NCBI GenBank assembly: GCA_043825855.1
Contig: JBDRRJ010000009.1
Coordinates: 17,866 to 81,865 of the forward strand
Origin: Pseudomonadota bacterium
Lineage (GTDB): Bacteria > Desulfobacterota > UBA8473
DNA length: 64,000 nt
Direction: 5' to 3'
In this document: positions 7,758 through 60,362 of the stretch, one piece after another
How positions within the stretch are numbered: the stretch's first letter is position 1
Layout: the number at the start of each line of letters is the position of its first letter
Translations under genes and position numbers: made by a program
Notes under the pieces: generated by a model
The model's input: the letters and a program-made list of their open reading frames with translations, nothing else
The model's database searches: none
Told to the model about the DNA's origin: nothing

Positions 7758-7816
7758 CCATCACCTCTATTATCCATTTAGACGCCTAAATGGTAAGTAC
7801 GCTTTCCGAATTACGA

Positions 7817-9168: not shown

Positions 9169-9176
9169 TATTCCCC

Positions 9177-10395: not shown

Positions 10396-10413
10396 GTTGC
10401 GCTCCTTTACTCT

Positions 10414-10467: not shown

Positions 10468-10471
10468 TATA

Positions 10472-12831: not shown

Positions 12832-12835
12832 ATTT

Positions 12836-13318: not shown

Positions 13319-13415
13319 TGCTCAAAAAAAATTATAGAGTGCCCCTAACAGCCAGGACAATGATCAACCGCGCCCAGTATGATCGTATTGTCCCTTTTTG
13401 GCTGTTAGGGGGTTT

Positions 13416-13616
13416 TTATGCTGCTTTCTTAGGTGAAAAGAGCTTATCAATAGGGACCCCAAGCTCTCTGGCAATAGCCTCCTGGGTTGGCCTGGGATGT
13501 TTGCGCCCATAATATGTCTGAGATGTCCATGTCCTAGACCTGCCTATACGGATGGAAAGTTCGGTTATCGTTATTTCCTTTTCGATTAAAAGATGCCGTT
13601 TATCCTTAATGTTCAT
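13416..13616 (-). CDS. Ner-like DNA-binding protein (Mu Ner / Cro analogue)
   Basis: 66 aa; …TELSIRIGRSRTWTSQTYYGRKHPRPTQEAIARELGVPIDKLF aligns with Mu Ner …LSRQFGYAPTTLANALERHWPKGEQIIANALETKPEVIW. It is divergent from the c repressor. Confidence 0.55.
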   Translation of the reverse strand: MNIKDKRHLLIEKEITITELSIRIGRSRTWTSQTYYGRKHPRPTQEAIARELGVPIDKLFSPKKAA

Positions 13617-13747
13617 TTGTTGTCCTCTTAATAATTAACGTTTGACAACCACCAAAACCAATATAATCGCATAGCAATCAAAATAATTTAACTACCATTG
13701 GAGATAGAATACAAAAAGTCAGAAATGACAATAAGTTATCTCAACGT
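13617..13747. promoter_or_regulatory. Divergent c/ner switch region. Candidate plus-strand promoter with TTGACA (13642-13647) and TATAAT (13662-13667), although the spacer is only 14 nt.
   Basis: 131-bp AT-rich interval between divergent repressor genes. The hexamers were read directly; the spacing is suboptimal. Confidence 0.35.
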
Positions 13748-26692: not shown

Positions 26693-28106
26693 CTTAATTC
26701 CTCCTTTATGTATGGTTGTTTTGACTAGTCTGCATTCAGTGTCACTATTAATCTAATATAGTCTTGATTAGAATAGAGAGTTCAAAAGTGGTATAAGTCT
26801 AGTTATGACAATGAAAAAAAATATGTAAAACGTTCAAGAATTTCTGAGGCAAAAAATAAATATCTGTCTTACCAAAATTCCTTTGTTTAAACTTGGCCCT
26901 CTTCAGATTTATCACCCGAGGGGTGGATTCGATAGCAACAAAATTGAGAACCTCCCTTGCTACCGGTTTTATATTGTAAAGTTTTAGCCTTTCGAGTACG
27001 GGCCCAAACTCTGCTTTCGGAAATCCTTGTGCCAGCTCTGATAGAAGTGATCAGACTTTAACGGCAATTTTGTGGTAATTAGGCAAAAACTTTACAAAGA
27101 TCAAACTTTCCTTCTGTCGTCTAAAACTCCCGCATCTTTAGGTATAGTCTCTTCTTTCACCAACTCTACATTGGCTTTAAGACGTATAACCTCTTTTAAT
27201 TTATGTGGGGTATTAGCTTACCCCATTGATATTCCAGAAGCTTATCCCTTGGCATTGTTTCTATTTCCACGTTCCAGAAGTCTTGATTATTTGCCATCTG
27301 TACCTCTTCTTATTCTTTTAGTTTTCGGTTAATGTCTCTCCCCGAAAGTTTTGGAATTATCTCATTTACCCATATTATCTTTACTGCCTGTCTTTACCTA
27401 AACTGTGGTTCCCAATTCTCAAAAAAAGCTAATCCTATTGAAAATGCAGTTTTTTGTGGTGGAGGTAATCATTTTTATATTTAATCGGGGGCTTCTCCAC
27501 TCAGTTATCGGATTAAACTCTTAGTTATCGAAAAGGATTATAGCATTGGGACTTACAGGAGCAAGTAAAGAGAAAACTATGAGGAGTAAAAGAAGGATAT
27601 TTTATTATTAAATACTCAGGAAGAAAGACTGAAAGCGGAATGAGGAAGGTTTTTCTAAATGTTTTATAGATTTCAGCCCAAACATCTTAGTAGCTCCCCT
27701 TATTCTAGCGATCAAAAAAATTTTGTATTAAGCACCTCCCTTTTTTGTTTATTCATTTTTATATAAAAGACGCAGCATTGTCAAACTTTTTATTGTTAAT
27801 AGGTTAAGGGGATATCGATATATATGATAGACACAACAAGTGTTGTATTATGTCGTAAATTGGGTTTTTGTTTAGGTCTCTTTTTTAGCATGCTACTATA
27901 AAATTCAGACTTTTTCAGAGTTTATAAACCCAAATAACAAAGCAAAAAACTGGTTGAGATTTTTATAATTTTAACTTATCATTACTTAAGTCATGAAATT
28001 TATTACCAAGATATCGCATTACCTTAATATTTAGTCAGTCTCTTAGCCTAAAACTTTTTAGTCTAAAGTTGAAAGGAAGATTAAAATTCACAAAAAAGAC
28101 GTTATT

Positions 28107-43894: not shown

Positions 43895-44410
43895 ATATTA
43901 CCTGATAATTCCAAAGTTTTTTCATGATTCTCACCCTTGTGCAATATATAAACAAATATAACAAAATCGTATATAATTCAATGAAAAACTGTCTGAAGAG
44001 TTTTGGTGAACAACTCTCATTTAGCCGTAGTCATTGTTTTAATAGGGTCTAATCTTAAACGTTCGGTTATCTTGAAAAGTATGGCGACGGTTTATACCCT
44101 TATGTACGTATTATAAGGAAAACATTAACGGTTATTCCAGGATAAAAGGACAAAAAACAGACTTTAATTAAGTATGACCAAGCTATTATTGAGCAATAAA
44201 AAAATGTATTTTGGATAAAAAATTATGTATAATAAACAAACTGTAAATTGAAAAACAATAACTTAGCAAAATATTTAAACTTTCTTTCTCTCGTGAGCGT
44301 TTTTCTAATTTTTTTCAGATGTAAAGTAACTCTTCTATTTCTTCAGATGTCTAAATAAACAAGTTATCAAAAATTGAAGTTTAAATATGATGGAGAAAGG
44401 AGATAACAAA

Positions 44411-45778: not shown

Positions 45779-45892
45779 TCTATTCAGGTTTTACAAAAGT
45801 TTTTAGTTTAAAACCTCTTTTTCGCAAAAGCATTTTTCTGGGATTTTTTTATAAATAAAAGTTTAAAAGTTATGGAGAAAGGAAATAACAAA

Positions 45893-47032
45893 ATGAAAAG
45901 GTTATTTTTGGGGACAATCCTTTTATCATTGGTAATTATCGTTGCTGCCTGTGTAGTGCCTGGAGCGAGTTTAAGAGTTGCAGTTCCTTTGCCGCCGTAC
46001 ATTGCATTCAGGTCAGCTCCGGATGTTATAGTGTTGCCAGATACGGATGATGTGTACGTTGTGCCCGATATCGATATAGACCTGTTTTTCTGGGGTGGCT
46101 GGTGGTGGCGTCCATGGGACGGTCGCTGGTATCGCTCACTTTATTATGACCGGGGATGGGCTTACTATGCCAGAGTTCCGATCTTCTATTTTGACATCGA
46201 TCCGGGTTGGAGAAGTCATTACAGAAACCATAGTTGGTTTAATTACCGCTGGGACTATAAACGGATCCCTCAACGGGAACTTCAACAGAACTGGAAAACC
46301 TGGCAGAAAAATCGATATTGGGAAAAGCAGAGAACCTGGGACATACAAAAGTATGAACCCCGACCGCTACAACAAAGACAGGAACTGAGAAATCAAAGGC
46401 AACAGCAATATCAGCAGAGACCTGAGATTCAGCAAGAAAGACAGAGATTGGAACTAAGAGATCAAAAGCAGGAGCAATATCAACAAAGGCCTGAAGTTCA
46501 GCAAGAACAACAGAGGCAGGAGCTGAGAAATCAAAAGGAAGAAGAGCAACGCAGAATTGAGATTCAGCAAGAAAGACAGCGACAGGAGCTACGAGAGCGA
46601 AAGGAAGAAGATCAACGAAGACTAGAGATGCAGCAAGAACAACAGAGACCCGAGGTTGGGCAAGAACGACAAAGGGAGGAATTAAAAGATCAAAGGCAAG
46701 AACAGTATCAACAAAGACCTGATGTTCAACAGGAACGGCAGAGGCAGGAACTAAAAGATCAAAAGCAGAAGCAATATCAACAGAGGCCTGAGGTTCAGCA
46801 ACAAGAAAAGAAACAGGAGTTACTTAAACAAAGAGAAGAAGAAAAACGAAGAATTGAGATGCAGCAGGAACGACAGAAGCAGGAGCTACGTAAGCAAAGG
46901 GAAGAAGTTAAACAGAAACCTGAAGTTAGGCAAAAACTAGAGAAAGAGAAAGTAAAAGATAAAGATCAAGAGCAACAGGAAGAGGAAGATCTACAGAAGC
47001 CAGAGCTTAAGCGAAATTTGCGGCAGAGATAA
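45893..47032 (+). CDS. Secreted Trp/Arg/Tyr-rich protein with a long Gln/Arg/Glu-rich tandem-repeat tail; paralogue of 44411..45025
   Basis: Same signal peptide plus W-rich core (…DIDLFFWGGWWWRPWDGRWYRSLYYDRGWAYYARVPIFYFDIDPGW…), followed by about nine 25-26-aa repeats of the form QQRPEVQQE.QRQELRNQKEE. Confidence 0.6.
   Translation: MKRLFLGTILLSLVIIVAACVVPGASLRVAVPLPPYIAFRSAPDVIVLPDTDDVYVVPDIDIDLFFWGGWWWRPWDGRWYRSLYYDRGWAYYARVPIFYFDIDPGWRSHYRNHSWFNYRWDYKRIPQRELQQNWKTWQKNRYWEKQRTWDIQKYEPRPLQQRQELRNQRQQQYQQRPEIQQERQRLELRDQKQEQYQQRPEVQQEQQRQELRNQKEEEQRRIEIQQERQRQELRERKEEDQRRLEMQQEQQRPEVGQERQREELKDQRQEQYQQRPDVQQERQRQELKDQKQKQYQQRPEVQQQEKKQELLKQREEEKRRIEMQQERQKQELRKQREEVKQKPEVRQKLEKEKVKDKDQEQQEEEDLQKPELKRNLRQR
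46380..46960 (+). repeat. In-frame tandem repeats of about 75-78 bp that encode the Gln/Arg/Glu-rich tail
   Basis: Units such as caacagcaatatcagcagagacctgagattcagcaagaaagacagagattggaactaagagatcaaaag recur with variation. Confidence 0.5.
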
Positions 47033-47402
47033 AAGCAAAAGTACGAGCAGAGACAAAGAAAAACCTTACCTTTCCCTTTTATAGCCCCCTTCACAGGGGG
47101 CTACCTCCTTAAAACTAACCTCGATATCTTATATCTACTATTGTTTTAATGGAATTTAGTCGGTTTATCCCAGCTTGTGCAGGGAGCATATTATGTTCCA
47201 GCCAACCCCATTTTCTTATTGACATGCATAATCTTTGATTGTTATATATATGAAAAACCTTACAAACAAGATAGACAAAACCTTAAGTTAATTTCTTAAC
47301 AACTATTTAAGGTATTTTGATATAAAATCATACCAATAAACTAACCTAAATAATCTAACTGTAAGAATCTAGCATAAATTATTATTCAGCAATAACTTTC
47401 AA

Positions 47403-48305
47403 ATGAAAAATTCAGATAATAAAATAACAGTTTACGGTTCATCGCAAATACAAAAGAAAATATTCACAATACGTAACGAACAAGTTATCGTAGATCGTGA
47501 TCTAGCAGAATTGTATCAAGTCCCTACTAAACGTCTTAATGAGCAAGTGAAAAGAAATATAGAGAGATTCCCCGATACTTTTAGATTTCAGCTTGATGAT
47601 AACGAAAAAATTGAACTGGTCGCAAATTGCGACCGGTTCGAAAATCTTAAACATTCTTCCGTAAATCCATACGTTTTTACAGAGCAAGGCGTGGCTATGC
47701 TTTCAGCAGTATTGAAAAGCGAAATCGCAGTAGCAGTAAGCATACAAATTATAAATGCTTTTGTTGCTATGCGGAAATTCCTTGTTACAAACGCCGGGGT
47801 TTTTCAGCGGTTAGATAAATTAGAAATTAAGCAAATTGAAACAGATCAAAAATTTGAAAAAGTATTTAATGCGTTACAAAAAAAAGACTATGAACCTAAA
47901 CAAGGGATCTTTTTCGACGGACAAATTTTTGATGCTTACAAGTTTGTCTCATCTCTTATTCGCAAAGCTGAAAAAACCATTCTGTTAATTGATAACTATA
48001 TCGATGAAACTGTCCTGGATTTGTTTACCAAGAAGAAAAAGGATGTTTCTGTAACAATATTAACAGCTAATCTTAACAAATCTCTAACACTTGATGGAAA
48101 GAAATTCAACAAACAGTATCCGCGTATAACCATAAAAGAATTTAACAAAGCACACGATAGATTTTTGATTGTTGATGACAGCGTTGTTTACCACTTTGGC
48201 GCTTCATTGAAGGATTTGGGTAATAAGTGGTTTGCTTTTTCAAAGATGGATAAATCCGTACTTGAATTATTAGAAAACCTTAAAAAGGTTGATGCTGATG
48301 ATTGA
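47403..48305 (+). CDS. ORF6N (KilA-N superfamily) domain protein with an uncharacterised C-terminal domain
   Basis: …VYGSSQIQKKIFTIRNEQVIVDRDLAELYQVPTKRLNEQVKRNIERFPDTFRFQL…NPYVFTEQGVAMLSAVLKS. Confidence 0.6.
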   Translation: MKNSDNKITVYGSSQIQKKIFTIRNEQVIVDRDLAELYQVPTKRLNEQVKRNIERFPDTFRFQLDDNEKIELVANCDRFENLKHSSVNPYVFTEQGVAMLSAVLKSEIAVAVSIQIINAFVAMRKFLVTNAGVFQRLDKLEIKQIETDQKFEKVFNALQKKDYEPKQGIFFDGQIFDAYKFVSSLIRKAEKTILLIDNYIDETVLDLFTKKKKDVSVTILTANLNKSLTLDGKKFNKQYPRITIKEFNKAHDRFLIVDDSVVYHFGASLKDLGNKWFAFSKMDKSVLELLENLKKVDADD

Positions 48306-48337
48306 GTGGAAGGAAAATGAAGTCGGTAAAATTCCGT

Positions 48338-48465
48338 CTGACTGGGGTGGCCGACTAAAGCCATAGGTTTAATACTTTCAAAGAAAAAGAAAGAATAATA
48401 TAGGAGAGCAAAGGGGGAAGGGCGCTTTTTTAGTTTAAGACTGGTCGTATTGGGTTAAAGGATAC
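48338..48465. repeat. Repeat family R1, copy 1 (~125 bp). Other copies are at 50262..50300 (partial) and 50682..50803.
   Basis: ctgactggggtggccgactaaagccataggtttaatactttcaaagaaaaagaaagaataatataggagagcaaagggggaagggcgcttttttagtttaagactggtcgtattgggttaaagg, about 88% identical to copy 3. Confidence 0.65.
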
Positions 48466-48597
48466 AATGTAGAAATGGAAGATTGAATTATAAAATCCCT
48501 TTTGATAAACTCTGAAAAATTACCGAATTATTGAGCATATGTAATTGTCCAATTTTTCTGGATATCATTCCAAAAGTGATATTATCCAGCTAATTAT

Positions 48598-49083
48598 GTG
48601 GTAAAGTACAGAAAACTAGATACTAACTTGTTATACGGGATGAAGATGAAGAAGGCACAACCACAATGGCGATGGGAAGATGGCGTTGTGGATGATCGGA
48701 AAGAACACATTGAGCTTCGCCACGGGAACGCAATGGAAACCCCATATGAGGACTGGTTGCCCGTTGCTCGAATTGGAAAACCAAAGGAAAAGGTCTTCCC
48801 CGTGCAATGGTTGGTCAAACTGGACTCTCCGGAAGATCAGGTCATGTTGGCCGATGCACGCCGGGAACTGGACTTTTATTTGGTCGAGAAAGGTGAACCC
48901 GACCCCTGGGCCTATGCTTATTACCACTGTAATACGGGGGCGAACATGTACTCGCGCATACATTGGTCGTTTTTCCCCGACGGACGGGACGGTAAGCGGG
49001 TGTCAAGCCTTGTAATAGAACTCTCGGCCAAACAGGCGGAAGAACTGTTCGGAAAACCGCAGAAGACGAATGCAGGGAAGTGA
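48598..49083 (+). CDS. Hypothetical protein, relatively GC-rich compared with its neighbours
   Basis: 161-aa ORF with no recognised domain. Confidence 0.35.
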   Translation: MVKYRKLDTNLLYGMKMKKAQPQWRWEDGVVDDRKEHIELRHGNAMETPYEDWLPVARIGKPKEKVFPVQWLVKLDSPEDQVMLADARRELDFYLVEKGEPDPWAYAYYHCNTGANMYSRIHWSFFPDGRDGKRVSSLVIELSAKQAEELFGKPQKTNAGK

Positions 49084-49295
49084 GTTATGGACTATGGCAA
49101 CCGATGATGGGGCTACTACCGCATTCGATTGTAGCCTGAGGAGATCGAGAAGCACAAATAGATCCTATCTGAAGTGATTGCTGAGGCCTATGCGACAGGT
49201 GGTTAGAAATAAAAGCCGAACCAAACGTTGGAGACTATGCGGTAAACCGCGCTCCTCAACACTATCGTTATATGGTTCCTAAAACTAGATGAACT

Positions 49296-50006
49296 ATGAA
49301 CACTGAAAAACTATATGCGCGCCTTGTCCAGATTTGGGAGAGTACTTTCGAGGACGACTACGATACCCTGGTGCCTCTCGTTCCTGTGCCACCGAAGGCA
49401 CATTGTCTCCTTTTTGTTGGTTTGAATCCCTCCTTCAATCCCAGTGCTATTCGCAGATTGCTACCCGCGGAAAAGCGAATCGAACCTAGCACTTACTTCC
49501 ATTGGAGGAACAGACGAACATTCGACCCACAGGTTGACGTCTGCTTGCACGAACATGCTAAGAAAGAATATGTGTATTTCTCGCGCTTTCACAAGCTTTC
49601 GTCCATAGTCGGAGTCGACTGGGACCATATTGATATCTGCTTTTATCGTGAGACCTCTCAAGCCAAAACGCGAAGTAGAATAATCGAGAAGGAATCGACT
49701 CACAAACTAACGGACTTTGGAGAAAAGCAATTCAATCTGTCTATGCAGCTGATTGCGGAGGCAGAACCAAGATGCATCATCGTGGCCAACGCTCTTGCAA
49801 GTAACATCTACAGAATTAAGAACAGACTGAAGTTCTCGCCATCGCGCGGATGTTACCCACAGGTGATCTGCGGTAGGGAGTTGCCAGTTTTCCTTTCGTC
49901 CATGCTCACAGGCCAGAGAGCTTTGGACAACTACTCATTTGAGCGTCTCGCTTGGCACGTTTGTCGTGAGCTGGGCATACCAATGAATTATAGCGGAACC
50001 ACATAA
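49296..50006 (+). CDS. Possible UDG-superfamily (Mug/TDG-like) DNA glycosylase-fold protein
   Basis: CLLFVGLNPSFNPS resembles the Mug motif VVFCGINPGLSSA. Later segments (CIIVANALASNIY…, …VICGRELPVFLSS…) parallel the Mug β4/β5 region. Weak call. Confidence 0.3.
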   Translation: MNTEKLYARLVQIWESTFEDDYDTLVPLVPVPPKAHCLLFVGLNPSFNPSAIRRLLPAEKRIEPSTYFHWRNRRTFDPQVDVCLHEHAKKEYVYFSRFHKLSSIVGVDWDHIDICFYRETSQAKTRSRIIEKESTHKLTDFGEKQFNLSMQLIAEAEPRCIIVANALASNIYRIKNRLKFSPSRGCYPQVICGRELPVFLSSMLTGQRALDNYSFERLAWHVCRELGIPMNYSGTT

Positions 50007-50261
50007 CCATTCATTCCAGACCAACACTGGGGACTAGCGTTGATTGGATAGTCAAGGACACCCCAGCCCAGCACACTTTTTGAGAAATTTCGCCTCTTGG
50101 GTACAGCTTTACAAAAGGAGTTCAAAAAAGAAAAAACACTGGATTTTACCTGCTATTTGAGGTATAAGTAAGTGGATGGTTAATTAAACAGTGATGATTT
50201 TGTAAACCCTAAACACAGAGGGGTAATTATGAGGGCGTCTTTCTTTAGTTTCTGAGATTGC

Positions 50262-50300
50262 AGAGAGCAAAGAGGAAGGGCGCTTTTTTGTTTATGGCTG
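50262..50300. repeat. Repeat family R1, partial copy 2
   Basis: agagagcaaagaggaagggcgcttttttgtttatggctg. Confidence 0.5.
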
Positions 50301-50312
50301 GGCTATTCGTTT

Positions 50313-50552
50313 ATGAAGACCAAAACAAAATACACTGATGAACCTATTGGTGAGCTAAGAGTTGTTAAGGATTTTCTCCCCTCACCAGACCAGTTGGTAT
50401 TGAAAGAAGACAACGTCAAGGTTACAATCTCGCTTAAAAAATCGAGCATTGATTTTTTCAAAGAACAGGCAAAGGAACACAGAACATCCTATCAGAAAAT
50501 GATAAGGGAGGTTGTCGACTGGTACGCCTCAAATTATCGAAAGAACCCATAA
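50313..50552 (+). CDS. BrnA-like (COG3514/DUF4415) antitoxin-family protein, apparently orphan because no BrnT/DUF497 partner lies upstream
   Basis: …YTDEPIGELRVVKDFLPSPDQL…KVTISLKKSSIDFFKEQAKEHRTSYQKMIREVVDWYASNY. Confidence 0.5.
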   Translation: MKTKTKYTDEPIGELRVVKDFLPSPDQLVLKEDNVKVTISLKKSSIDFFKEQAKEHRTSYQKMIREVVDWYASNYRKNP

Positions 50553-50681
50553 CATCAGCTTGGATAAGAGTGCTCATTCCGTTGCACTCTATTCGTACCT
50601 GTCAAGCTCCGGAAGATTTTATGTACCAATTGACCAAAGACGAGTTCGAAAACTCGAAATCGCAAATTGCGATATCAAGCT

Positions 50682-50803
50682 CTGACTGGGATGGCAGACG
50701 AAAGCCATAGGTTTTATACTTGCAGAGAAAAAGAAATAATAATTTAGGGGAGCAAAGAGGGGGGCTTTTTTGGTTTAAGCCTGGTTTGTTCGGTTAAAGA
50801 ATA
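50682..50803. repeat. Repeat family R1, copy 3
   Basis: ctgactgggatggcagacgaaagccataggttttatacttgcagagaaaaagaaataataatttaggggagcaaagaggggggcttttttggtttaagcctggtttgttcggttaaag. Confidence 0.65.
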
Positions 50804-51146
50804 AAAATAGACATATCGCTGCATACTTTGATCTTGGTTAGGAAGAAATCAATGCCATAAACCAATTACTACAAGTAGAAAAGTAAGGAATTAACAAAAT
50901 AGATTCAAACATCACAGGCTTCAACCTTTGGATAAATTCAGGCGAAAGTTAAGGGCAGGGAGTTTTTCGCTGTCGCATTCATTTAATACCCGACAAATCA
51001 GCTGATGTTGATTAGCCAAGAGGTGGAGCGAGAAATTTATGTCCTGTAAAGTAAATTACTAATCAATCCAATAATTCGCTACATAGGACATTGGCGCTAT
51101 TTTGCCTCTTTATGTGAGGTTAACCTTTAGATGTTAAGGGAAAATA

Positions 51147-52352
51147 ATGAAAGCAGAACTAATCTTAAAATTGTTTGACGCTTTTAATATCCAAAGATGG
51201 AATGACCAGGTTAGACCCACAGATTTGGTTGAAATCGATAAGCATGGGCACAAAATGGCAATCGCTTATTGTCTTGCTATGTGTGAAAGTGAAATTAATG
51301 GGGCTAAAATTAGTTGGGAAGATATAATTAAAGGAGGTGTTTATGAATTACTTCGTCGTACAGCACTCTCAGATATAAAATCTCCGGTTTATAGACTTAT
51401 CAAGAACGAATTTCCTGATGCATACAGAGAAATGAACTCTTGGGCATGGAGTGAATTGGAATTATGCCTTGAAGATGGAGAAATGAAAACGGAAATTGAG
51501 TCATATTTGGTGAATGGTCACACTCTTGAAAATACTGCTTGCAGGATTTTAGATGCAGCACATGTTTTTGCAAGCTATTGGGAATGGCAAATCATTCGAA
51601 ACCTAAACCCAGCTTCTCCCTATATTGTTATATTGGATGAAAGGGTAAATAACGACCTCGAAGAGCATATGGATTTAGTGGGAATAAAGAAATTGGTATC
51701 TAGACAAAAGCTACTTCGCTTTATTGACATTGTTGGTAGATTACGATTTCAGGTTCGTTGGGGGCAAACATTAAGGCTTCCCAAGACTTCTGTGTTGGGG
51801 CACAGTATGTTTGTTGCATGTCTAACCTATTTTTTGACAAGGCAATTTAATGCATGTGAAGAACGAATAAAAAACAATTTTTTCGGGGGCCTATTTCATG
51901 ATCTCCCTGAGTCAGTAACAAGAGACATTATTTCGCCAGTAAGAAAAGGAGTAAAGGGATTGGAGGGTGTTATAAAAAAAATCGAAACCAGTTTAATGGA
52001 GAAAGAAGTCTTTCAATATTTAGATACCGCATGTAAAGACGAAATGTCTTATTATACAACTGACGAATATTGCTGCAAGATTAAAATTGACAGCGCAGTG
52101 TCCAAAAAATCTATTGATGAAATTAACAGAGAATACAACCAAAACAAATATCACCCTATAGATGGAGAACTTATTGAGGTTGCAGACAAGCTATCTGCTT
52201 ACGTAGAAGCTAGGCTTGCATTAAAAAATGGCTTCCAATCCGAACACCTTAAACATGGTGAAGAGTCCTTAAGTAGTCAATATAATGAATTTCGCATTGC
52301 CGGGATAGATGTTGGTGCCCTTTTTAAAAAAGTAAATGACCTAACAAAATAG
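51147..52352 (+). CDS. Tandem HD-domain protein: an N-terminal degenerate (pseudo) HD domain plus a C-terminal intact YfbR-like HD phosphohydrolase (5-prime-deoxynucleotidase-type) domain
   Basis: C-terminal half: RW…LGHSMFVA…GGLFHDLPESVTRDIISPV…ELIEVADKLSAYVEA (H, HD, E, D, D all present). The N-terminal half aligns to it (RW…HGHKMAIA…GGVYELLRRTALSDIKSPV), but HD has been replaced by YE. Confidence 0.65.
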   Translation: MKAELILKLFDAFNIQRWNDQVRPTDLVEIDKHGHKMAIAYCLAMCESEINGAKISWEDIIKGGVYELLRRTALSDIKSPVYRLIKNEFPDAYREMNSWAWSELELCLEDGEMKTEIESYLVNGHTLENTACRILDAAHVFASYWEWQIIRNLNPASPYIVILDERVNNDLEEHMDLVGIKKLVSRQKLLRFIDIVGRLRFQVRWGQTLRLPKTSVLGHSMFVACLTYFLTRQFNACEERIKNNFFGGLFHDLPESVTRDIISPVRKGVKGLEGVIKKIETSLMEKEVFQYLDTACKDEMSYYTTDEYCCKIKIDSAVSKKSIDEINREYNQNKYHPIDGELIEVADKLSAYVEARLALKNGFQSEHLKHGEESLSSQYNEFRIAGIDVGALFKKVNDLTK

Positions 52353-52488
52353 CACCTTTAATCAAGAAAGAGTCAAGTAAAGATTTTAATGATACTAGAA
52401 TACTTCATTGCATAGAGTCATAAAGTAATCCATCGTTTTGTGAATTTTAGATGTCATCAGAATTATAGACAAAAAGAATAGAGCTAAT

Positions 52489-53616
52489 ATGAAAAACATA
52501 TTCTTCCTTTATATTCCTCCAAACAATAACGAAGCAATAATCCACTACCAAGACACAATTATAAACAAAGTCCCACAAGAGCAAATATTTAGATTAGTTG
52601 ACCAAAATTTAAAAAACTACTTGAGACATGTCTTTCAAGACAAACGAATTGCTGTTTGGGGATCACGAAATACTCCCTCCAACAAATCGAAGTTTGAAAA
52701 AATGGAAGCAGGTGACAATATCCTTATTGTCGAAGGTGAAACAGTAAAACTGTTAGGTTATATCGCTGCAACAACGATCAATCAGGATCTGTCAAGAGAG
52801 CTGTGGAAAAATATAGACGGTAGATATTCAGAAGGATGGGATCTGATTTACTTTATTTCAAACCCCTTAGAGATTGATCTCCCTTTCGCAGAAATAAATA
52901 AACTCTTAGAGTATGAACCAACGTATCGGCTACATGGATTTACAATCGTTGGTAAAGAAAAGCTCAAAGAGTTTTACAAGCAGTATGATGATTTATACTC
53001 AATTCTGCAGCGCATCAAATCGGGTGATCGGGTTATTCGCCGGGATCAGGAAATATTAACCGAAGTTCCTCATGAGGTGCACGAAGACCTAAAATCTTAT
53101 GGTGAATCAGAAATATCACAGCATTTAGAGATGCAGTGGAAATTGATTAATTTGGGGAAAAAGACCGGATCAAAGGTCTGGGTTCCAAAGAATGATCAGA
53201 AAAAAATTGTCGATACATATGGTTATACCGATTTTGAGCAGGAATTTTCTTCTGGGATAGACTTACAAGCAAAGTATGTCGAAAATATCGATGTGATTTG
53301 GAAAGAGGAATTCAGGATAGATGCTGCCTTTGAAATAGAGCACTCAACGGGTATTTATTCAGGGCTACTCAGATTTTCTGATTTAAAGATTGTGGCACCC
53401 AATAGCCAGTATCCATTGTTCATTGTTGCCCCAATTTCACAGCGAAACAGATTAAAAGAGCAGATTAATCGACCAACCTTTAAAAAGATGGATTTTATAC
53501 ATAATGTCAAATATTTGTCATATGAGATTGTTAGTGAGATTGACAAATTTTTTGAAAAATCTAACAGTGGTTTAACTGTAGAACTTCTAATTGGCAAATC
53601 TGAAATCATAACATAA
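52489..53616 (+). CDS. Two-domain protein: N-terminal EVE/PUA-like domain and a C-terminal nuclease-like (candidate PD-(D/E)xK) domain. Putative modification-dependent nuclease.
   Basis: N-terminus: …RIAVWGSRNTPSNKSKFEKMEAGDNILIVEGETVKLLGYIAAT, matching the EVE pattern W-G-v-R-N…M…GD.vl…iG. C-terminus: …IDVIWKEEFRIDAAFEIEHSTG…LFIVAP, with D…ExE on alternating β/α elements. Confidence 0.4.
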   Translation: MKNIFFLYIPPNNNEAIIHYQDTIINKVPQEQIFRLVDQNLKNYLRHVFQDKRIAVWGSRNTPSNKSKFEKMEAGDNILIVEGETVKLLGYIAATTINQDLSRELWKNIDGRYSEGWDLIYFISNPLEIDLPFAEINKLLEYEPTYRLHGFTIVGKEKLKEFYKQYDDLYSILQRIKSGDRVIRRDQEILTEVPHEVHEDLKSYGESEISQHLEMQWKLINLGKKTGSKVWVPKNDQKKIVDTYGYTDFEQEFSSGIDLQAKYVENIDVIWKEEFRIDAAFEIEHSTGIYSGLLRFSDLKIVAPNSQYPLFIVAPISQRNRLKEQINRPTFKKMDFIHNVKYLSYEIVSEIDKFFEKSNSGLTVELLIGKSEIIT

Positions 53617-53734
53617 TTCTCTAATGTTGACCCTTTACAAGATTTGGAGAACAGATATTACACAAACTGCTATGCAGTTTGATAGTAGATATGAATATAA
53701 ATTAAGAGGGTCTAAGAAATAGCGACAGCGCCTA

Positions 53735-53778
53735 TTTAATTTGACACACAAAAAAGATGGGATTTTCTCTATTGTAAA
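53735..53778. repeat. Repeat family R2, copy a: TTTAATTTGACACACAAAAAAGATGGGATTTTCTCTATTGTAAA. It contains TTGACA and sits upstream of the zinc-ribbon ORF.
   Basis: Read directly. The other copies are at 54129..54171 and 60108..60146. Confidence 0.6.
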
Positions 53779-53836
53779 TAATGAAATTGAAAATTAAAAG
53801 ATTGGAAGCTACCAATTACAGAAAAAGGGGGATAAA

Positions 53837-54058
53837 ATGGCGAATCTCTCAGGGCCACAACCAGAAATAAAATACTGTCCAATTTGTAAGTCCAATCTAA
53901 GAAATGTACCAAGAAATGAAATGAAATCCAAAGGCCATGTTAGAAAAGACGGCACGGTGTCCAAGCACACACATACATATGACTGTAGTAGTTGTAGAAA
54001 TCGATTTGTAATAAACCAAAACAGACTAAAAATACAACAAAGTCTATTACTGTTTTGA
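53837..54058 (+). CDS. Small zinc-ribbon protein (CPIC…CSSC)
   Basis: 73 aa with an RBS (aaaaaggggga). KYCPICKSNL…YDCSSCRNRF. Confidence 0.4.
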   Translation: MANLSGPQPEIKYCPICKSNLRNVPRNEMKSKGHVRKDGTVSKHTHTYDCSSCRNRFVINQNRLKIQQSLLLF

Positions 54059-54128
54059 ACCATTTTTCGATAGAAATGACCCACGTAAAAGAAGGGAGAG
54101 ACACTAGAAATTGTAGGTACAGCAAACA

Positions 54129-54171
54129 TTTAATTTGATACACAAAAAGAAGGGATTTTCTCTATTGTAAA
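54129..54171. repeat. Repeat family R2, copy b
   Basis: tttaatttgatacacaaaaagaagggattttctctattgtaaa. Confidence 0.6.
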
Positions 54172-54410
54172 GACAGGAGTTCGGTAAGCTTTTTGGCCAG
54201 ATCCCTCTCTCTTCAAACTCTAACCAATTAGAAAGGAAACCCCTCCGACTATTTTTCAGCCCATTTCAAAATAGTCTTGACTATTTTTCAACTTGTCGAG
54301 AGAAGCGAAGTCTACCGTACGGTGCCAAATGGAGACCAGTATATACTCATCGCTCCGGCATATCAGTGGCTTTCAAGTTTACCTTAGTTTGACTGGGGAG
54401 AGTTTTTCTT

Positions 54411-54650
54411 TTGATTAAACATTCTTGTAGAGTAACCGCATATTCCGGCTATAAAGCAAATGAAAGACCGCTGTCTTTTACCGTTGATAATCAAAGGCTT
54501 GGAGTCCGGGATATTGTATGCAGGTGGTCGGAGCCGGAGAAGGATTTCTTTAAAGTAATTGCTGATGATGGTAAAGAATACACCCTTAGCTGGAATCGGA
54601 AATCGGATATGTGGCTTATTGAAGAGATTTCTGAAAAACAGTGCGAATAA
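54411..54650 (+). CDS. Small conserved hypothetical protein (79 aa), paralogue of 60156..60362. The track start is a TTG.
   Basis: The shared core VTAYSGYKANERPLSFTVDNQRLGVRDIVCRWSEPEKDFFKVIADD is about 88% identical at the DNA level to the 60-kb copy. Confidence 0.4.
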   Translation: MIKHSCRVTAYSGYKANERPLSFTVDNQRLGVRDIVCRWSEPEKDFFKVIADDGKEYTLSWNRKSDMWLIEEISEKQCE

Positions 54651-54894
54651 TTTACCGGGTTCTGCAAAAAATACTATGTCTTGTTTTTACATTTAAACCT
54701 ATTTATGTAAAGTTAGTGCCCTTTTATTTACATTGAATCCCTATAATGTAAACAAGATGCTTAACCCTTTGAATGGGACATGGAAAAATAGTTTTCTTGG
54801 TTAAATATACAGGAACAACTAAAAAATTTAACCCGTAAGTCAAATTATCACAAATAACTTGACTTGAACTCCAAATTATCATATAAGAGAACCT

Positions 54895-56049
54895 ATGGGC
54901 AAGACACTCATAATAGAAAGAATTCAAGACATTAAACTGCCTTCCGATAGATCGGCTTTCCTCTGGGGTCCCAGAAAGACAGGCAAGACTACCCTTTTAA
55001 AACAGAAATTTCCTGATGCCTGTTGGATAGATCTTCTGGATCATGATATTTATTTAGCCCTCAGCCGGAAACCCACCAGCCTGAAACAGATTCTGGAAGC
55101 GCAATCTTCCAGACTTGTTGTCATTGATGAGGTGCAAAAGATCCCAAGTCTCATGGATGAAATCCACTGGCTTATGGAAAACAGAGACTACCAGTTTATA
55201 CTTTCAGGCTCAAGCGCAAGGAAACTGATAAGGTCAACAGTGAATCTCCTTGGCGGCAGGGCATGGCGTTTTGAGCTTTATCCCCTTGTCACTCATGAAC
55301 TCAAGGAAAAATTTCATCTGGAAAAAGCCCTTCTTCACGGACTCCTGCCTTCCCATTACCTATCAACCAACAGTGAAATGGATTTAAAGTCCTATGTCTT
55401 TGATTATCTGAAAGAGGAGATACAGGCAGAGGCCCTTACCCGTAATATACCCGCCTTTTCCAGATTTCTGGATTCTGCCGCAGCTACGAATGGTATGCTG
55501 CTTAACTATTCAAATGCTGCCAGAGAAGCGGGTGTCTCGGTTAAGACCATAAGGGAATATTACCAGATACTCGAAGATACGCTTATAGGATGTCAATTAC
55601 CCTCATGGAAGAAATCAAAAAAGAGGAGATTGATTGAGACATCCAAGTTTTATTTTTTTGATACAGGGATTGTCTCCGCAATTTTACAATACAGGACGCT
55701 TCATCCAGCTACTGATAATTTCGGACGAGCCTTTGAGCATTTCATCTTCCAAGAATGCAGGGCATACAGGCATTACAGCCGTTTGGATTTTCCGATTCAT
55801 TTTTGGAGGACCGCCGGAGGATCGGAAGTAGATCTTATCCTTGGTGATGCTGAAATTGCGATAGAAATTAAATCATCTGAAAATGCGGGTGATAGGACAA
55901 AGGGTATTCATCTGTTCAAAGAGGAATTCAAATGCAAAAATGCCTTCATTGTCTCAAGAGACCCTGTTCCAAGGAAAATAACCTCAGATATAACAGTGTT
56001 GCCATGGAAGACCTTCTGTGAAATGCTCTGGAATGGTGATATTATTTGA
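54895..56049 (+). CDS. AAA+ ATPase of the COG1373 type (ATPase domain plus DUF4143)
   Basis: Walker A GPRKTGKTT, Walker B VVIDEVQ, and a C-terminal DUF4143-like region (…FYFFDTGI…). Confidence 0.75.
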   Translation: MGKTLIIERIQDIKLPSDRSAFLWGPRKTGKTTLLKQKFPDACWIDLLDHDIYLALSRKPTSLKQILEAQSSRLVVIDEVQKIPSLMDEIHWLMENRDYQFILSGSSARKLIRSTVNLLGGRAWRFELYPLVTHELKEKFHLEKALLHGLLPSHYLSTNSEMDLKSYVFDYLKEEIQAEALTRNIPAFSRFLDSAAATNGMLLNYSNAAREAGVSVKTIREYYQILEDTLIGCQLPSWKKSKKRRLIETSKFYFFDTGIVSAILQYRTLHPATDNFGRAFEHFIFQECRAYRHYSRLDFPIHFWRTAGGSEVDLILGDAEIAIEIKSSENAGDRTKGIHLFKEEFKCKNAFIVSRDPVPRKITSDITVLPWKTFCEMLWNGDII

Positions 56050-56081
56050 CTCGACTCCTTGCAGGCTTCATTTGCGCTCCT

Positions 56082-57422
56082 TTACTTCCTTAGCTCCGCT
56101 AAAATGGTTAATCTTTCAACTGGAATACGTTTCTTAATGTCCTCCACAACCATCCTGGCGCTCTGAACCGCGCCGCTCACACCGGGGTACTCTGCTGGCT
56201 CAACACCATCCCCTACATTGTAGAGATTTTCCACTAAAGTCGTTTGTGGCATACGATAATCGGGCCAGCTCCTGATTACGGGCCACTCCCCGCTGAAACA
56301 GGACACGTGCAGGATCTCTGCATGGGCATCGAATCCGGGGATGTTGTCCTTCAGGTCCATAATGAGCAGGTCGATTTCTTTCTTGAAGTCCACAGGCCCC
56401 AGGCAATTCTCCGGCGCAGAGAAACCATGTATATAGTATCTGCCCGGTGGCGAATGTTCGGGGCAGGTTTGATTGGAATTGAATATGATATTGAGTCTGC
56501 GAGCCTCTGTGATCAAAAGGGTTCCGGGACAATCTATAAGAGGCCTGTCGCTGGATAGGGCAACCCCTGTTACCGGAATGGGCCGCAGGAAATTAGCCAT
56601 CTGCATCAGGTATCCACGGTCGAAGTTTTCTTCGCCGGTCAACTGTACCGTCTTCTTTGGCCCGGCATTGCTGATTACCACACCGGCTTCTATCTCGGCC
56701 TGCTCTCCATTCTTCTCAACCACCACTCCCCGGACCTTCCCTTCCGTCACTGTGATCCGCTTGACAGAACACTGCGTCCACACCTCACCGCCCTTCGCCC
56801 GAATGGCCTGGGCCAGCGAATTCATAAGACTCTCGGCGCCGTCAGGGGGATAACCGAACTGGGTTGGATTACTTGTCTTTAAAAAACGAAAAAATTTCCC
56901 GGCTGAAATCTCATGGCTGTTTACGGTATGCCAGGCTGTAATCAATGCCCGAAATATGCCCAGGATCCTGGGATTCTGAGTATACTGCATCAGCCAGTCC
57001 CGAAAAGATATCATGGTCGAAGGCTCATGCCACGAGATGGCCTTCTGAATGGCATCAAGCACTCTTTTTGCCTCTGTCTCATCCTCGGCAGCAGCAGAAA
57101 TCAGATATTTCAATCTTCCCCGCACGGGTATTTCATAATCCTTTCCCCCGACCCTGTAATGGGATTGGGGATCAGGGCAACGAAGCTTGTACTCCGCACC
57201 TATCTCCCGGAAAATCTCCGGTACGACCCCCTCGGCCGGCAACCAGAGCGCCCCTGTAGGTAACATATAGCCCTTGTAATCCATACTGGAGAATCGACCA
57301 CCCAGTCGAGGCAGCTTCTCAACCAGCAGGGTTTTATAACCGGCACAAGTTAAAAGGGCTGTCGCCGATAATCCACCTATGCCTGACCCTATAACAATCG
57401 CGTCATACGTCTTGTTAGCCAT
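56082..57422 (-). CDS. FAD/NAD(P)-binding oxidoreductase (phytoene-desaturase-like fold). Start trimmed to MANKTYD.
   Basis: YDAIVIGSGIGGLSATALLTCAGYKTLLVEK…GGR dinucleotide-binding motif. Confidence 0.7.
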   Translation of the reverse strand: MANKTYDAIVIGSGIGGLSATALLTCAGYKTLLVEKLPRLGGRFSSMDYKGYMLPTGALWLPAEGVVPEIFREIGAEYKLRCPDPQSHYRVGGKDYEIPVRGRLKYLISAAAEDETEAKRVLDAIQKAISWHEPSTMISFRDWLMQYTQNPRILGIFRALITAWHTVNSHEISAGKFFRFLKTSNPTQFGYPPDGAESLMNSLAQAIRAKGGEVWTQCSVKRITVTEGKVRGVVVEKNGEQAEIEAGVVISNAGPKKTVQLTGEENFDRGYLMQMANFLRPIPVTGVALSSDRPLIDCPGTLLITEARRLNIIFNSNQTCPEHSPPGRYYIHGFSAPENCLGPVDFKKEIDLLIMDLKDNIPGFDAHAEILHVSCFSGEWPVIRSWPDYRMPQTTLVENLYNVGDGVEPAEYPGVSGAVQSARMVVEDIKKRIPVERLTILAELRK

Positions 57423-57585
57423 CAGACACCTCCAGAGCATCTACCGGACAATAATCTATGCAAACCAAACATTCGGTGCAGTCATCATTTACCTCCGCTT
57501 TGCCCCATGCCCAAAGTGCTTCCACAGGGCAATAGGGCATACAACTGCCACACCCCACACATTTCGCTTCATTGACATTAACCAT
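57415..57585 (-). CDS. 2x[4Fe-4S] ferredoxin (56 aa, below the ORF-track cutoff), with its stop overlapping the start of the oxidoreductase gene
   Basis: Manual translation: MVNVNEAKCVGCGSCMPYCPVEALWAWGKAEVNDDCTECLVCIDYCPVDALEVSDG. It has two CxxCxxCxxxCP motifs. Confidence 0.65.
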   Translation of the reverse strand: MVNVNEAKCVGCGSCMPYCPVEALWAWGKAEVNDDCTECLVCIDYCPVDALEVSDG

Positions 57586-57721
57586 ATCGCCTTATATCCT
57601 TTCAAAAGATTAAATGGAGAGGTTCTTGCATCTTGCCAAAATCTCTTAGACTTGTTTGTCGGAACAATAAAGCCTTAAGAATCACTTTCAAAGGCTATTT
57701 CTAATTCACGATCATGAGAAA

Positions 57722-58135
57722 TCAGGGGAGCGCAATTCGTTCCTTTATAAAATCGACGATTTCATATCCCTGAGTCCCTGGTCCAAATACCCCTGAAACG
57801 CCTTTATCCATAAGAAGCTGTGCATCTTTGCCAAAGATCCTGCCGCCGCCAATGACCAAGACCCTCTGCATGTCCTTTCTCTTTAACTGATCAACAATTT
57901 CAGGCAAAAAAAGGAGATGCGTATCACCTGACGATGCGCTCAGACCGATCACATCAACATCTTCCTGTAAAGCAACTTCCACGACTTCTTCAGTCTTTTG
58001 GAAGACGTGCATAATAACTTCCATGCCCGCACGCTGCAGCAGCGTTGCCACCAGGAAATACCCCTTGTCATGGCTTTCCAAGTCGAATTTGGTCATGAGC
58101 ACACGGATCTTCCTTTGTTTTTGATTTTGTTCCAT
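57722..58135 (-). CDS. Cobalamin (B12)-binding domain protein, small subunit of a split acyl-CoA mutase. Start trimmed to MEQNQ.
   Basis: DxHxxG motif (DLESHDKG) and GG…G Rossmann motifs. 1-nt overlap with the large-subunit stop. Confidence 0.8.
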   Translation of the reverse strand: MEQNQKQRKIRVLMTKFDLESHDKGYFLVATLLQRAGMEVIMHVFQKTEEVVEVALQEDVDVIGLSASSGDTHLLFLPEIVDQLKRKDMQRVLVIGGGRIFGKDAQLLMDKGVSGVFGPGTQGYEIVDFIKERIALP

Positions 58136-59766
58136 TACCAAACCTCCCACCCGAATACTTCTTTCAAAACCCCGCATATCTCACCCATTGTAGCCCCGCA
58201 TTTCGCTGCATCAATCATCCGTGGCGTCATATCTGCTTCCTCATCCAGGGCTGCGTCCTTGAGCCTGGAGAGACCATCATCCACCAATGTCTGATTCCGT
58301 TCCTTCTTGAACTTCTTCACTCTATCGATGATGATCTGTTCATCTTCATGATACTCATGCCCCATCGCGATCTCATCGTCCGGTTCCTCTTCTTTAAACT
58401 TGTTTACACCAACAACAATACGCTTTCCTGTCCAGACGTCATTAGAATACTCATAGGCATTCTGGGCAACCTCCGACTTTATCATGCCACTTCTGACAGC
58501 CTTACACCAACCGCCGTGATCTTCAACCCGTTTTATGCAATCCCACGTCTTTTCTTCGATCTCATTGGTCAGGGACTCAACAAAATATGAGCCCGCCAGG
58601 GGATCCACCACATTGGTGACATTGCTTTCATAACGCAAAATTTGATGAATCCTGAGAGATTGTTTAGCCGCCCTTTCACTGGGTATGGAAGCCGCCTCAT
58701 CATAGCAATCCAGAGAAAGTGCGTTTACGCCTCCCAGAACAGCGGCCAGACCCTGGATGGTAACCCTGGCAATATTGTTTAACGGTTGTTGGAGGGTCAG
58801 TGATGATCCGGAGGTCTGTACAAATATCTTTGCCCTCTGAGATTTAGGGTTTTTGGATCCAAATCGATCCCCTATGATTTTGCTCCACATCCTTCGCATT
58901 GCCCGTAGTTTACAGATCTCTTCAAAAAAATCGTTTTCGCCATTCACGTGGAAGCTGACCACAGAGGCAACTTCATCGACTGTGACACCTCTTTTGATGC
59001 ATTCCTCAATAGAGGCTATGGCGCGAGACAGGCCGAACCCCAACTCCTGTATGGCGTTGGCGCCCGCTTCCCGTATTTGGGATGTGTCCAGATTAAAATT
59101 GATGTGGGGTGTGTTTCTAACAGAATACTTGATCATGTCCGCACGAATTCGAAGGGCCCCTTCAGGTGAATACTCACGTCGGTTTTGGAGGAACCCCTCA
59201 TCCACGCAGGCCACGATATCACCGCGCATCCGTTCGATCGGGAATCCCTGATCCATTGCCTGAGCCATCCATAAGGCATACATACCGGGGGCCGAAGAAT
59301 GAGCGATGAGACTCAGATGGAGTTTTTCGAGGGGAAGCCCGTCAAGAAGTTTCCTGAAATCTTCCCTGGTGGATAGGGAGACACCACAACGGCCAACCAA
59401 GCCCCTCGCCAAAGGATCATCGGCGTCAATGGCCGCAGAGCAGCCCGGGACATCTGGGATCATATTGAAGGCAGTAATATCGAAGGCATCATATCCGCTG
59501 GAGCCTTCCTTGAACAGCATTTCCATCCTTTCTCTCGTCGCCTCAATGGTCTCAAAGCCAAACAACTGCAAAACCATCCAGGGTTGCGTGCGGTACATCT
59601 CGGGATATATGCCACGGACAAACGGGCTCTTGCCAGGATCACCAATATCCCGCTCATAATCAAAATGCTTCAAATCCTCTGGCGTATAAACAGATTTTAC
59701 CCTTATTTTTGATCTGGTGTAAAAAGAAGTGTCTTCCTTCTCTTTTGATATGTCTTTTATCTCCAT
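58135..59766 (-). CDS. Methylmalonyl-CoA mutase family protein, catalytic (substrate-binding TIM-barrel) subunit
   Basis: 543 aa with a typical MCM alpha N-terminal domain (…KSPFVRGIYPEMYRTQPWMV…). Confidence 0.8.
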   Translation of the reverse strand: MEIKDISKEKEDTSFYTRSKIRVKSVYTPEDLKHFDYERDIGDPGKSPFVRGIYPEMYRTQPWMVLQLFGFETIEATRERMEMLFKEGSSGYDAFDITAFNMIPDVPGCSAAIDADDPLARGLVGRCGVSLSTREDFRKLLDGLPLEKLHLSLIAHSSAPGMYALWMAQAMDQGFPIERMRGDIVACVDEGFLQNRREYSPEGALRIRADMIKYSVRNTPHINFNLDTSQIREAGANAIQELGFGLSRAIASIEECIKRGVTVDEVASVVSFHVNGENDFFEEICKLRAMRRMWSKIIGDRFGSKNPKSQRAKIFVQTSGSSLTLQQPLNNIARVTIQGLAAVLGGVNALSLDCYDEAASIPSERAAKQSLRIHQILRYESNVTNVVDPLAGSYFVESLTNEIEEKTWDCIKRVEDHGGWCKAVRSGMIKSEVAQNAYEYSNDVWTGKRIVVGVNKFKEEEPDDEIAMGHEYHEDEQIIIDRVKKFKKERNQTLVDDGLSRLKDAALDEEADMTPRMIDAAKCGATMGEICGVLKEVFGWEVW

Positions 59767-60107
59767 TTCTTTTTCTCCTAATTATCCGAAAAACCATCGA
59801 GCTCTAAAAACATCCAAAACCGCTAAAAATATCATGGCATCAACTAAAATTAAGTGTGTCCTGACGGCTTTTTTAAACAGCACTGAAAACCTCTGCTATT
59901 AAATTATATTTAATCTAAACTGTCAAGGGGGAATAACTGAGGCTTGAAAAATAGGATATCGTGAAAAAGAAGAGACTTGAACCTGGGAATTTCCGTAAAG
60001 AGATTCAAAGACTTCAACATTGTTTAACAAACAACATGATGGCCTTGGCTGGGGAAACTGATGCTATCTAAATTAAATAGGGTCAATTATATAGGGTCTG
60101 CGAATAT

Positions 60108-60146
60108 TTGAATTGATACTTAAAAAGATGGGATTTTCTCTATTGT
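60108..60146. repeat. Repeat family R2, copy c, immediately upstream of the small paralogous ORF
   Basis: ttgaattgatacttaaaaagatgggattttctctattgt. Confidence 0.55.
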
Positions 60147-60155
60147 GTCGACAAA

Positions 60156-60362
60156 ATGACTGGATATTATACCAATGTAACTGCATACTCTGGCTATAAA
60201 GCGAATGAAAGACCATTGTCTTTTACTATTGATGATCAAAGGCTTGAAGTTCGGGATATTGTATGCAGGTGGGCAGAGCCGGAGAAGGATTTCTTTAAGG
60301 TAATTGCTGATGATCATATAATAAAGAATCATAATGCCAAGATAAAAGACCTGACCCCTTGA
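60156..60362 (+). CDS. Small conserved hypothetical protein (68 aa), paralogue of 54411..54650 with a divergent and probably truncated C-terminus
   Basis: MTGYYTNVTAYSGYKANERPLSFTIDDQRLEVRDIVCRWAEPEKDFFKVIADD…. Confidence 0.35.
   Translation: MTGYYTNVTAYSGYKANERPLSFTIDDQRLEVRDIVCRWAEPEKDFFKVIADDHIIKNHNAKIKDLTP

Follow-up and report, generated by a model that had tools for sequence, protein, structure and literature searches.

A short repeat upstream of three small genes derives from the 3′ flank of trpC and may mark old insertion junctions at a defence hotspot

A 64-kb stretch of contig JBDRRJ010000009.1, taken from a metagenome-assembled genome (MAG) of the Desulfobacterota and referred to here as the window, carries a direct repeat of 41–45 bp, R2, in three copies on the + strand. 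Each copy lies upstream of a small open reading frame (ORF). These are a zinc-ribbon gene, an ORF of 79 aa (ORF b) and an ORF of 68 aa (ORF c), and all three are present as the preliminary description of this DNA stated. That description took R2 for a promoter or operator. We find instead that R2 is the short sequence directly 3′ of trpC in this lineage, and that it is no signal for gene starts. We give an even chance to the reading in which serial single-crossover insertions at a hotspot, the 3′ end of trpC, produced the copies as junction or anchor relics. The inserted foreign DNA would be largely phage-defence genes, with R2 most likely left behind at each insertion. R2 is an ordinary kind of genome scar and not a new regulatory element.

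The window was searched with a 20-mer of the R2 core, allowing up to 3 mismatches, and 100 shuffles served as the control. The core matches at 53759, 54152, and 60130 with 0, 0, and 3 mismatches, respectively; the shuffles gave no match. A profile built from the copies also returns only these three matches in the 64 kb, which bears out the earlier count of a motif of about 45 bp. Copy R2a (53734–53778, + strand) is a 45-mer with CTA, the equivalent of the trpC stop codon, at 53769–53771, and it ends in 7 trpC-like nucleotides (TTGTAAA). R2b (54128–54171, + strand) continues directly into a 3′ fragment of trpC. R2c (60106–60155, + strand) consists of the 45-mer, up to 60146, and about 9–13 trpC-like nucleotides, which adjoin the ATG of ORF c. 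The segments between the copies measure 394 bp (a to b) and 5.98 kb (b to c).

Pairwise identity between the copies climbs from left to right and is highest in the core. It is about 41–57 % in the far-left 44 nt, 69–94 % in the 16 nt left of the core (ATTTAATTTGAYACAC), and 24–25 of 25 positions (96–100 %) in the 25-nt core itself (AAAAAGAWGGGATTTTCTCTATTGT). Some 40 bp of further upstream similarity had been ascribed to copies a and b, but their alignment is confined to the 45-mer. The upstream similarity is instead between R2a and R2c (81 nt at 78 %, 53695–53775 versus 60066–60146) and, to a lesser extent, between R2b and R2c (55 nt at 82 %). In the widest ranges obtained, the core is 92–100 % identical and the left flank 34–57 %. 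This conserved core within diverged flanks counts for old copies of R2, as does the synonymous divergence (dS) of 0.44 between ORFs b and c described below.

On the minus strand, three pieces make up the right end of R2: the final codons of trpC, its stop codon, and the 13 nt with which the 3′ flank begins. The core reads ...(L)Q-stop on that strand, followed by AGAAAATCCC(A/T)TCTTTTT. Next to R2b, a decayed trpC 3′ end was detected by tblastn on the minus strand at 54162–54236, with a stop codon and about 24 codons (...RERDLAKKLTELLSLQ*) and a 2-nt deletion. Positions 54165–54212 translate to RERDLAKKLTELLSLQ, the stop codon is at 54162–54164, and the similarity to trpC at the DNA level reaches 54236. 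The R2b fragment is a decayed 72-nt piece of the trpC 3′ end. A 17-mer core scan of genome collections gave 69 matches, about the number expected by chance, of which that in L049 alone could be extended. A 20-mer scan of metagenome contigs gave 13 matches, and the real ones among them were only L088 and L091, of the same lineage as L049 (Deltaproteobacteria MAG CG_4_8_14_3_um_filter_43_13). In these three loci the core match extends rightward and not leftward, and it falls on the terminal part of an intact trpC that belongs to a trpE-G-D-C operon. R2 had no match among viral contigs, plasmids, or phages. The gene end motif ATGGG(AT)TTCTCTATTG is kept next to intact trpC in all of the lineages compared. 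Beyond the gene end there are two flank 'alleles', the R2 type and a 'p' type (AAATAAAGGGTA..). As judged from these alignments, R2 derives from the 3′ end and flank of trpC.

There is no intact trpC in the window. The intact TrpC of the source MAG is MFH2011304.1, which is encoded on a different contig of 243 kb. We assign it to the same MAG because its accession is only about 440 away from those of the window proteins MFH2011743 and MFH2011749. With the intact gene on another contig, the trpC fragment in the window is therefore a relic.

The displacement event itself can be seen in a Thermodesulfobacteriota MAG (GCA_040757775.1; L101). Here the order is trpE-G-D-C (trpC at 7001–7792), an AbiEii-like gene, a 426-aa AAA_14/DUF4143 ATPase gene, a displaced trpC end, and R2. 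The displaced end (10086–10174) repeats the final 89 nt of trpC in decayed form, and is 81 % identical to 7703–7791. The AbiEii-like gene and the ATPase gene are thus bracketed by direct repeats of the 3′ end of the target gene, as att sites bracket an insert. The R2 45-mer of L101, CATTTAATTTGATACGCAAAAAGATGGGATTTTCTCTATT, follows immediately after the displaced end, and R2 with its trpC fragment lies 2.3 kb from the intact trpC, beyond the two defence genes. Such a layout is well known from insertions at gene 3′ ends, in which the gene end is duplicated and the old end pushed away. No site-specific recombinase was called in the L101 island.

The corresponding stretch of the window (54127–54236) matches L101 with 87.5 % identity over 112 nt (blastn). 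The fragment at R2b and the displaced fragment in L101 have derived changes in common that are absent from all intact trpC genes, for example GGTAAGC, and TCAAACTCTAACCRATTAGAAAGG in place of ATAAGACTYTCNCCKATGAGAAAGG. The two are orthologous pseudo-fragments because of these common derived substitutions. The R2 45-mer is identical at 43 of 44 positions between the window (R2b) and L101, versus about 85 %, with an indel, for the adjoining pseudo-fragment. This contrast suggests, mildly, that the 45-mer remained under constraint after its displacement. An IS1595-like transposase N-terminus remnant (…KKYVKRSRISEAK…) is present both in L101 (10231–10338) and in the window (26760–26866, minus strand). 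In L101 it lies about 20 nt left of the R2 45-mer, which probably explains why the left flank there differs from those of the window copies.

The DNA directly 3′ of trpC differs across six related lineages. The loci with different cargo are L049, L098, L099, L101, and L105–107. The flank holds a DUF4143 ATPase gene in L049, a 73-aa gene and AbiEii in L098, a 70-aa ORF and then an MCP gene in L099, and a PIN-domain pair in L106. L101 carries the AbiEii-like gene and the ATPase gene, with a BglII-like restriction endonuclease (REase) gene beyond R2. The cargo types here include AbiE, PDC-S01-type ATPases, a PIN gene, and a BglII-like REase. Among the relatives examined, no genome has an intact trpC directly followed by the full R2; the relatives carry different cargo there. 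Defence cargo at dedicated hotspots is a known pattern (Hochhauser, Millman and Sorek 2023, PMC10121019).

In the insertion model, foreign DNA would enter at the stop-codon region of trpC by a single crossover, with the anchor duplicated each time. The crossover would take place on a circular intermediate that brought along a trpC end or flank, and could be either site-specific or homology-driven (Campbell-type). The insert would then be flanked by an anchor copy at either end, with the older one pushed outward, and each R2 copy would mark the trpC-distal junction of one insert. The 25-bp core would be the recognition or crossover segment of a recombinase, or else the longest perfect match available to RecA. 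The small genes to the right of R2 would be cargo, or neighbors that arrived with the inserts; the two intact ones have a ribosome-binding site (RBS) of their own. The comparisons show the trpC origin of R2, the displacement, the variable flank with its hotspot, and the age of the copies. We infer the single crossover and the role of the core, and likewise that R2 may still be recombinogenic: direct copies may recombine, and so release or exchange the segments between them. The suggestion in the preliminary description that R2 is the end of a mobile unit that copied itself is retained in part. R2 does mark junctions of inserted DNA, but the copies are old and diverged and do not reflect recent self-copying.

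Several observations weigh against this model. Scans of all larger ORFs of the window with Pfam, NCBIfam, and PADLOC found no tyrosine or serine recombinase, and the only transposase is the MuA of a Mu-like prophage, which is 40 kb from R2 and unrelated to the R2 site. The intact trpC is not beside the R2 array, and at least one later rearrangement must be assumed. Of trpC, no more than 7 nt are left in R2a and about 13 nt in R2c, and the long trpC fragment sits on the middle copy, which the simplest serial displacement does not predict. The 'insert' between R2a and R2b is very small (394 bp). Just one copy of R2 is known outside the window, that in L101. The collection scans required ...CTATTGT and the L101 variant has CTATTCT, so further copies may have been missed. 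The conserved core could also reflect some other function. A simple attL/attR pairing of copies a and b, or b and c, was considered but not adopted, as all copies have the same (left) arm and only b has a gene fragment.

The main rival explanation is that the copies are passive relics, either of segmental duplications long past or of imports from related genomes, and that R2 does nothing today. Its core would have been kept only because it was part of a functional trpC 3′ region in the donor until recently. This agrees with the trpC origin of R2, with the gene end motif kept beside intact trpC in all lineages, with the lack of a recombinase nearby, and with an ORF c that is truncated and has no RBS. 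However, the contrast between the 45-mer and the neutral fragment next to it in R2b and L101 suggests constraint, and random deletion does not predict that two independent copies should both end no more than 6 nt from the stop codon, as they do. We regard passive relics as possible, if somewhat doubtful. A variant of the insertion model goes further. The trpC 3′ flank of Desulfobacterota-like bacteria would be a cassette-exchange platform, with the R2 core as its recombination site and a recombinase that acts in trans from a gene elsewhere in the genome; this we think unlikely. Small defence or accessory cassettes, such as the zinc-ribbon gene, PDC-S01 ATPases, and AbiE modules, would then be captured, stacked, and released between direct copies of R2. 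Such a platform would be functionally integron-like with an unrelated site and enzyme, and the small ORF would be a second anchor (compare locus L092 below).

It is improbable that R2 is a cis-regulatory element, that is, an alternative-sigma promoter or an operator, which drives the small genes to its right. What makes this attractive is that each of the three copies precedes a small ORF on the same strand, that R2 is an AT-rich element of about 45 bp, and that its core is better conserved than its surroundings. The TTGACA that had been noted in the motif is found in R2a, but R2b and R2c have TTGATA. A consensus scan of both strands gave no sigma-70-type site within any of the copies, and no −10 box at a usable spacing, as had been recognized before; in R2a the nearest TATTGT is 23 nt from TTGACA. 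By inspection, the −24/−12 spacing of sigma-54 does not fit either, with TTG 3 nt too far from GG, and the motif shows no clear dyad symmetry. R2 stands at very uneven distances from the start codons: 58, 239, and 9 nt for a, b, and c. The last of these leads to the truncated ORF c, which has no RBS, and a trpC pseudogene fragment lies between R2b and ORF b. In L101, the element adjoins the trpC fragment and faces the 3′ end of the convergent ATPase gene, and it precedes no gene start; the association with gene starts is thus absent from the one copy available elsewhere. More distant members of the small-ORF family have no R2 upstream, and in its right third the motif consists of trpC codons and the stop codon. 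The promoter or operator proposal is not upheld by these results. R2 also has no match in Rfam (E ≤ 1 and at the gathering threshold), the terminator scan found nothing in it, and its folds on both strands of all copies are no better than those of shuffled sequences (z −1.0 to +1.1).

We consider it very unlikely that R2 is the terminus of a transposable element, such as an insertion sequence (IS), a miniature inverted-repeat transposable element, or a Tn7-like element, that targets the site after trpC. R2 is indeed a short repeated element with a sharp right boundary at a conserved gene end, the IS1595-like remnant adjoins it in L101, and the zinc-ribbon ORF faintly resembles the N-terminus of IS1 InsA (E 0.006). 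Against this, neither half of R2 has an inverted copy in the 64 kb with up to 5–7 mismatches, and there is no visible target-site duplication, no subterminal hairpin, and no adjacent transposase. The 'terminus' would include host trpC codons, which are present also in genomes without the rest of R2, and the zinc-ribbon protein belongs to a stand-alone 63-aa family. Misjoining of the metagenome contig at short repeats is more improbable still. The source is a MAG and there are repeats of 45–140 nt at the junctions, but the run has also been assembled separately (Logan, L078, 20.8 kb), with the same order across the three copies. The repeat copies have diverged and would not collapse, and the junction of R2 with the trpC fragment is independently present in L101.

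If the insertion model is correct, it removes a tempting misannotation, as a repeat that stands before three small genes is yet no promoter. The stop-codon region of trpC would be a hotspot at which uncultured sulfate-reducer-like bacteria gather and swap defence genes with no visible mobility gene. It would also be a testable site for how 'integrase-less' defence islands arise.

R2 is a fresh example of a known phenomenon (att-like direct repeats, displaced gene ends, and defence hotspots), which gives useful context and no surprise. The classical case of att direct repeats at gene 3′ ends is that of tRNA/tmRNA-targeting integrases, whose islands bring a replacement 3′ end for the gene they enter. 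As in the attL/attR ends of islands, the 3′ end of a gene is duplicated in direct orientation on both sides of accessory DNA in L101, the copy that was displaced has decayed (in L101 and at R2b), and the array grows as one site is used again and again. Unlike in those islands, the target is protein-coding (trpC), with the intact gene on another contig, and there is no integrase within the 64 kb. R2a and R2c carry the downstream flank and not the gene end, and divergence among the copies is strong. The window was found to contain no tRNA or tmRNA gene as a target. The flank resembles the defence-island hotspots of PMC10121019 in that a single core-gene flank holds varying defence cargo (AbiE, PDC-S01, REases, PDC-S05). 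In E. coli hotspots the defence cargo is usually on recognizable mobile elements (PMC10121019), whereas no mobility gene accompanies the cargo here.

Short, direct, site-like repeats that are each followed by a small gene, with one cassette of 394 bp, recall the attC arrays of integrons. In contrast to integrons, the window has no IntI or other integrase gene, R2 lacks the palindrome and hairpin of attC (fold z about 0), and the segment between R2b and R2c is a multigene block with genes on both strands. The small ORFs resemble rhs/cdi orphan modules, as a full-length copy is followed by older truncated copies that keep the conserved part (in the window and in L092). Here, however, the part retained is N-terminal, and the protein is an all-beta protein of 80 aa and not a toxin.

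Small ORF b (54411–54650, + strand; 79 aa) has a TTG start and its own RBS (GGGGAGAG-N8-TTG). Small ORF c (60156–60362, + strand; 68 aa) has an ATG start. The DNA repeat between them (54432–54569 versus 60177–60314) is 90 % identical over 138 nt and ends after ...IADD, in line with the earlier estimate of about 88 % over some 150 nt with divergence after IADD. ORF c is homologous to the family from the ATG to codon 53 (60156–60314) and is unrelated thereafter, which agrees with the proposal that one copy had been truncated or recombined. A homology search with ORF b gave 188 homologs, mostly from Desulfobacteraceae and Thermodesulfobacteriota MAGs. The family members are about 80 aa long and have 14 invariant residues. 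ORF b has no match in Pfam. Its structure model is all-beta, with six beta strands (predicted local distance difference test score, pLDDT, of 74), and has no significant fold match in the PDB. The upstream regions of the homologs (L001–L008 and L092–L097) contain neither R2 nor a common motif, and the neighbors of the family vary among genomes and give no functional clue.

The two ORFs differ by 13 transitions and 1 transversion. Over codons 8–53, dS is 0.44 and the nonsynonymous divergence (dN) is 0.038. The dN/dS ratio is 0.085 and not near 1, the value that the preliminary description had associated with a lack of codon-level conservation. The small ORFs are genuine coding sequences because of this low ratio. 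ORF b is a member of the family under purifying selection, and ORF c is so for codons 1–53 only. ORF c is up to 93 % similar over 46 aa to proteins of other metagenomes, and 81 % to ORF b. The ORFs are long separated and did not arise by recent duplication in place, because dS is 0.44 and ORF c is equally near to foreign proteins. Judging from their sequences, ORF b is a full-length member of the family and ORF c is the truncated relic of a second, diverged member. Two other origins of the repeat were rejected. The 138-nt repeat is not explained by a diversity-generating retroelement (template repeat/variable repeat), as the differences are mostly at third codon positions and are not adenine-specific, and no reverse transcriptase was identified nearby. 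A Campbell insertion into ORF b predicts the truncated copy on the left, which is the opposite of what is observed.

Locus L092, of a different genome, holds one full and two partial small-ORF copies (285–674, 1904–2052, and 4084–4344) with 87–93 % mutual identity, and radical-SAM and AbiEii cargo lies bracketed by them. An independent protein, P0022, has the same fragment junction as L092, ...SWN|TEVSGL*. On these sequences, the small ORF looks like a recombination hotspot in its own right. A hairpin with a perfect 9-bp stem, GACTATTTT(N12)AAAATAGTC, is present at 54262–54291, between the trpC fragment and ORF b.

The zinc-ribbon gene (CPIC...CSSC; 53837–54058, + strand; 73 aa) is the cargo between R2a and R2b and has its own strong RBS (AAGGGGGATAAAATG). 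Its product belongs to a very conserved stand-alone family of 63 aa, whose members in distant phyla, KSB1 and Acetivibrio among them, are 60–84 % identical. In the window copy the stop position is lost, and the frame runs on for 10 extra codons. The homolog at locus L103 is near the Wadjet genes JetC and JetD. At L103 and L104 an 82-aa gene precedes the zinc-ribbon gene, and the two may form a two-gene module; the window copy is without that partner.

An island of accessory and defence genes with low GC content lies left of R2a (45872–53616, + strand). It contains an ORF6N+PLD gene assigned to PADLOC PDC-S05 (47403–48305; E 1e-121), a gene for a BrnA-like antitoxin (50313–50552), a gene for an HD/YfbR-like protein of 401 aa (51147–52352), and a type II REase-like/NmeDI_C gene (52489–53616). 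Between R2b and R2c lies the gene for an AAA_14/DUF4143 ATPase, the PADLOC defence candidate PDC-S01 (54895–56049, + strand). The GC content is 33–38 % over most of this defence block (45872–56049). A 30-nt imperfect direct repeat at 54821–54881, with TTGACT-17-TATAAG, lies just upstream of the ATPase gene and, from its position and sequence, is likely its promoter or operator.

The rest of the segment between R2b and R2c is a minus-strand cluster (56082–59766) that encodes a flavin adenine dinucleotide (FAD) oxidoreductase, a ferredoxin, a B12-binding subunit, and a methylmalonyl (MM)-CoA-mutase-like large subunit. Its GC content is 50–52 %, versus 43–48 % in the neighboring genes (DUF6125, acyl-CoA ligase, and ABC genes to the right). 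A 670-nt gap that holds R2c separates the cluster from the genes at the right. This 'mutase operon' may be a separately acquired block. An ORF-like stretch in the gap (59962–60073, + strand; VKKKRLEPGNFRKEIQRLQHCLTNNMMALAGETDAI*) ends where the left flank of R2c starts, and may be the tail of a lost gene.

A non-coding element of about 200 nt is also common to the window (50120–50320) and L101 (11739–12015), with 85.6 % identity, and is on the same side of R2 in both. Partial copies are present at 48404–48479 and 44124–44157 of the window. The element ends in an intrinsic terminator with a 16-bp stem on the + strand (GAGGGCGTCTTTCTTT...AAGGGCGCTTTTTT; fold z −2.2) and has no match in Rfam. A small RNA gene is one possible reading of this element, and a further recurrent island junction is another. 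At the far left of the window (1–14344) is the Mu-like transposable prophage mentioned above, with Mu F-like, portal, terminase, gp27, Gam, and GemA genes. It also encodes a MuB-like AAA protein (9706–10395), the MuA transposase (10472–12736), and an S24/HTH repressor (13748–14344).

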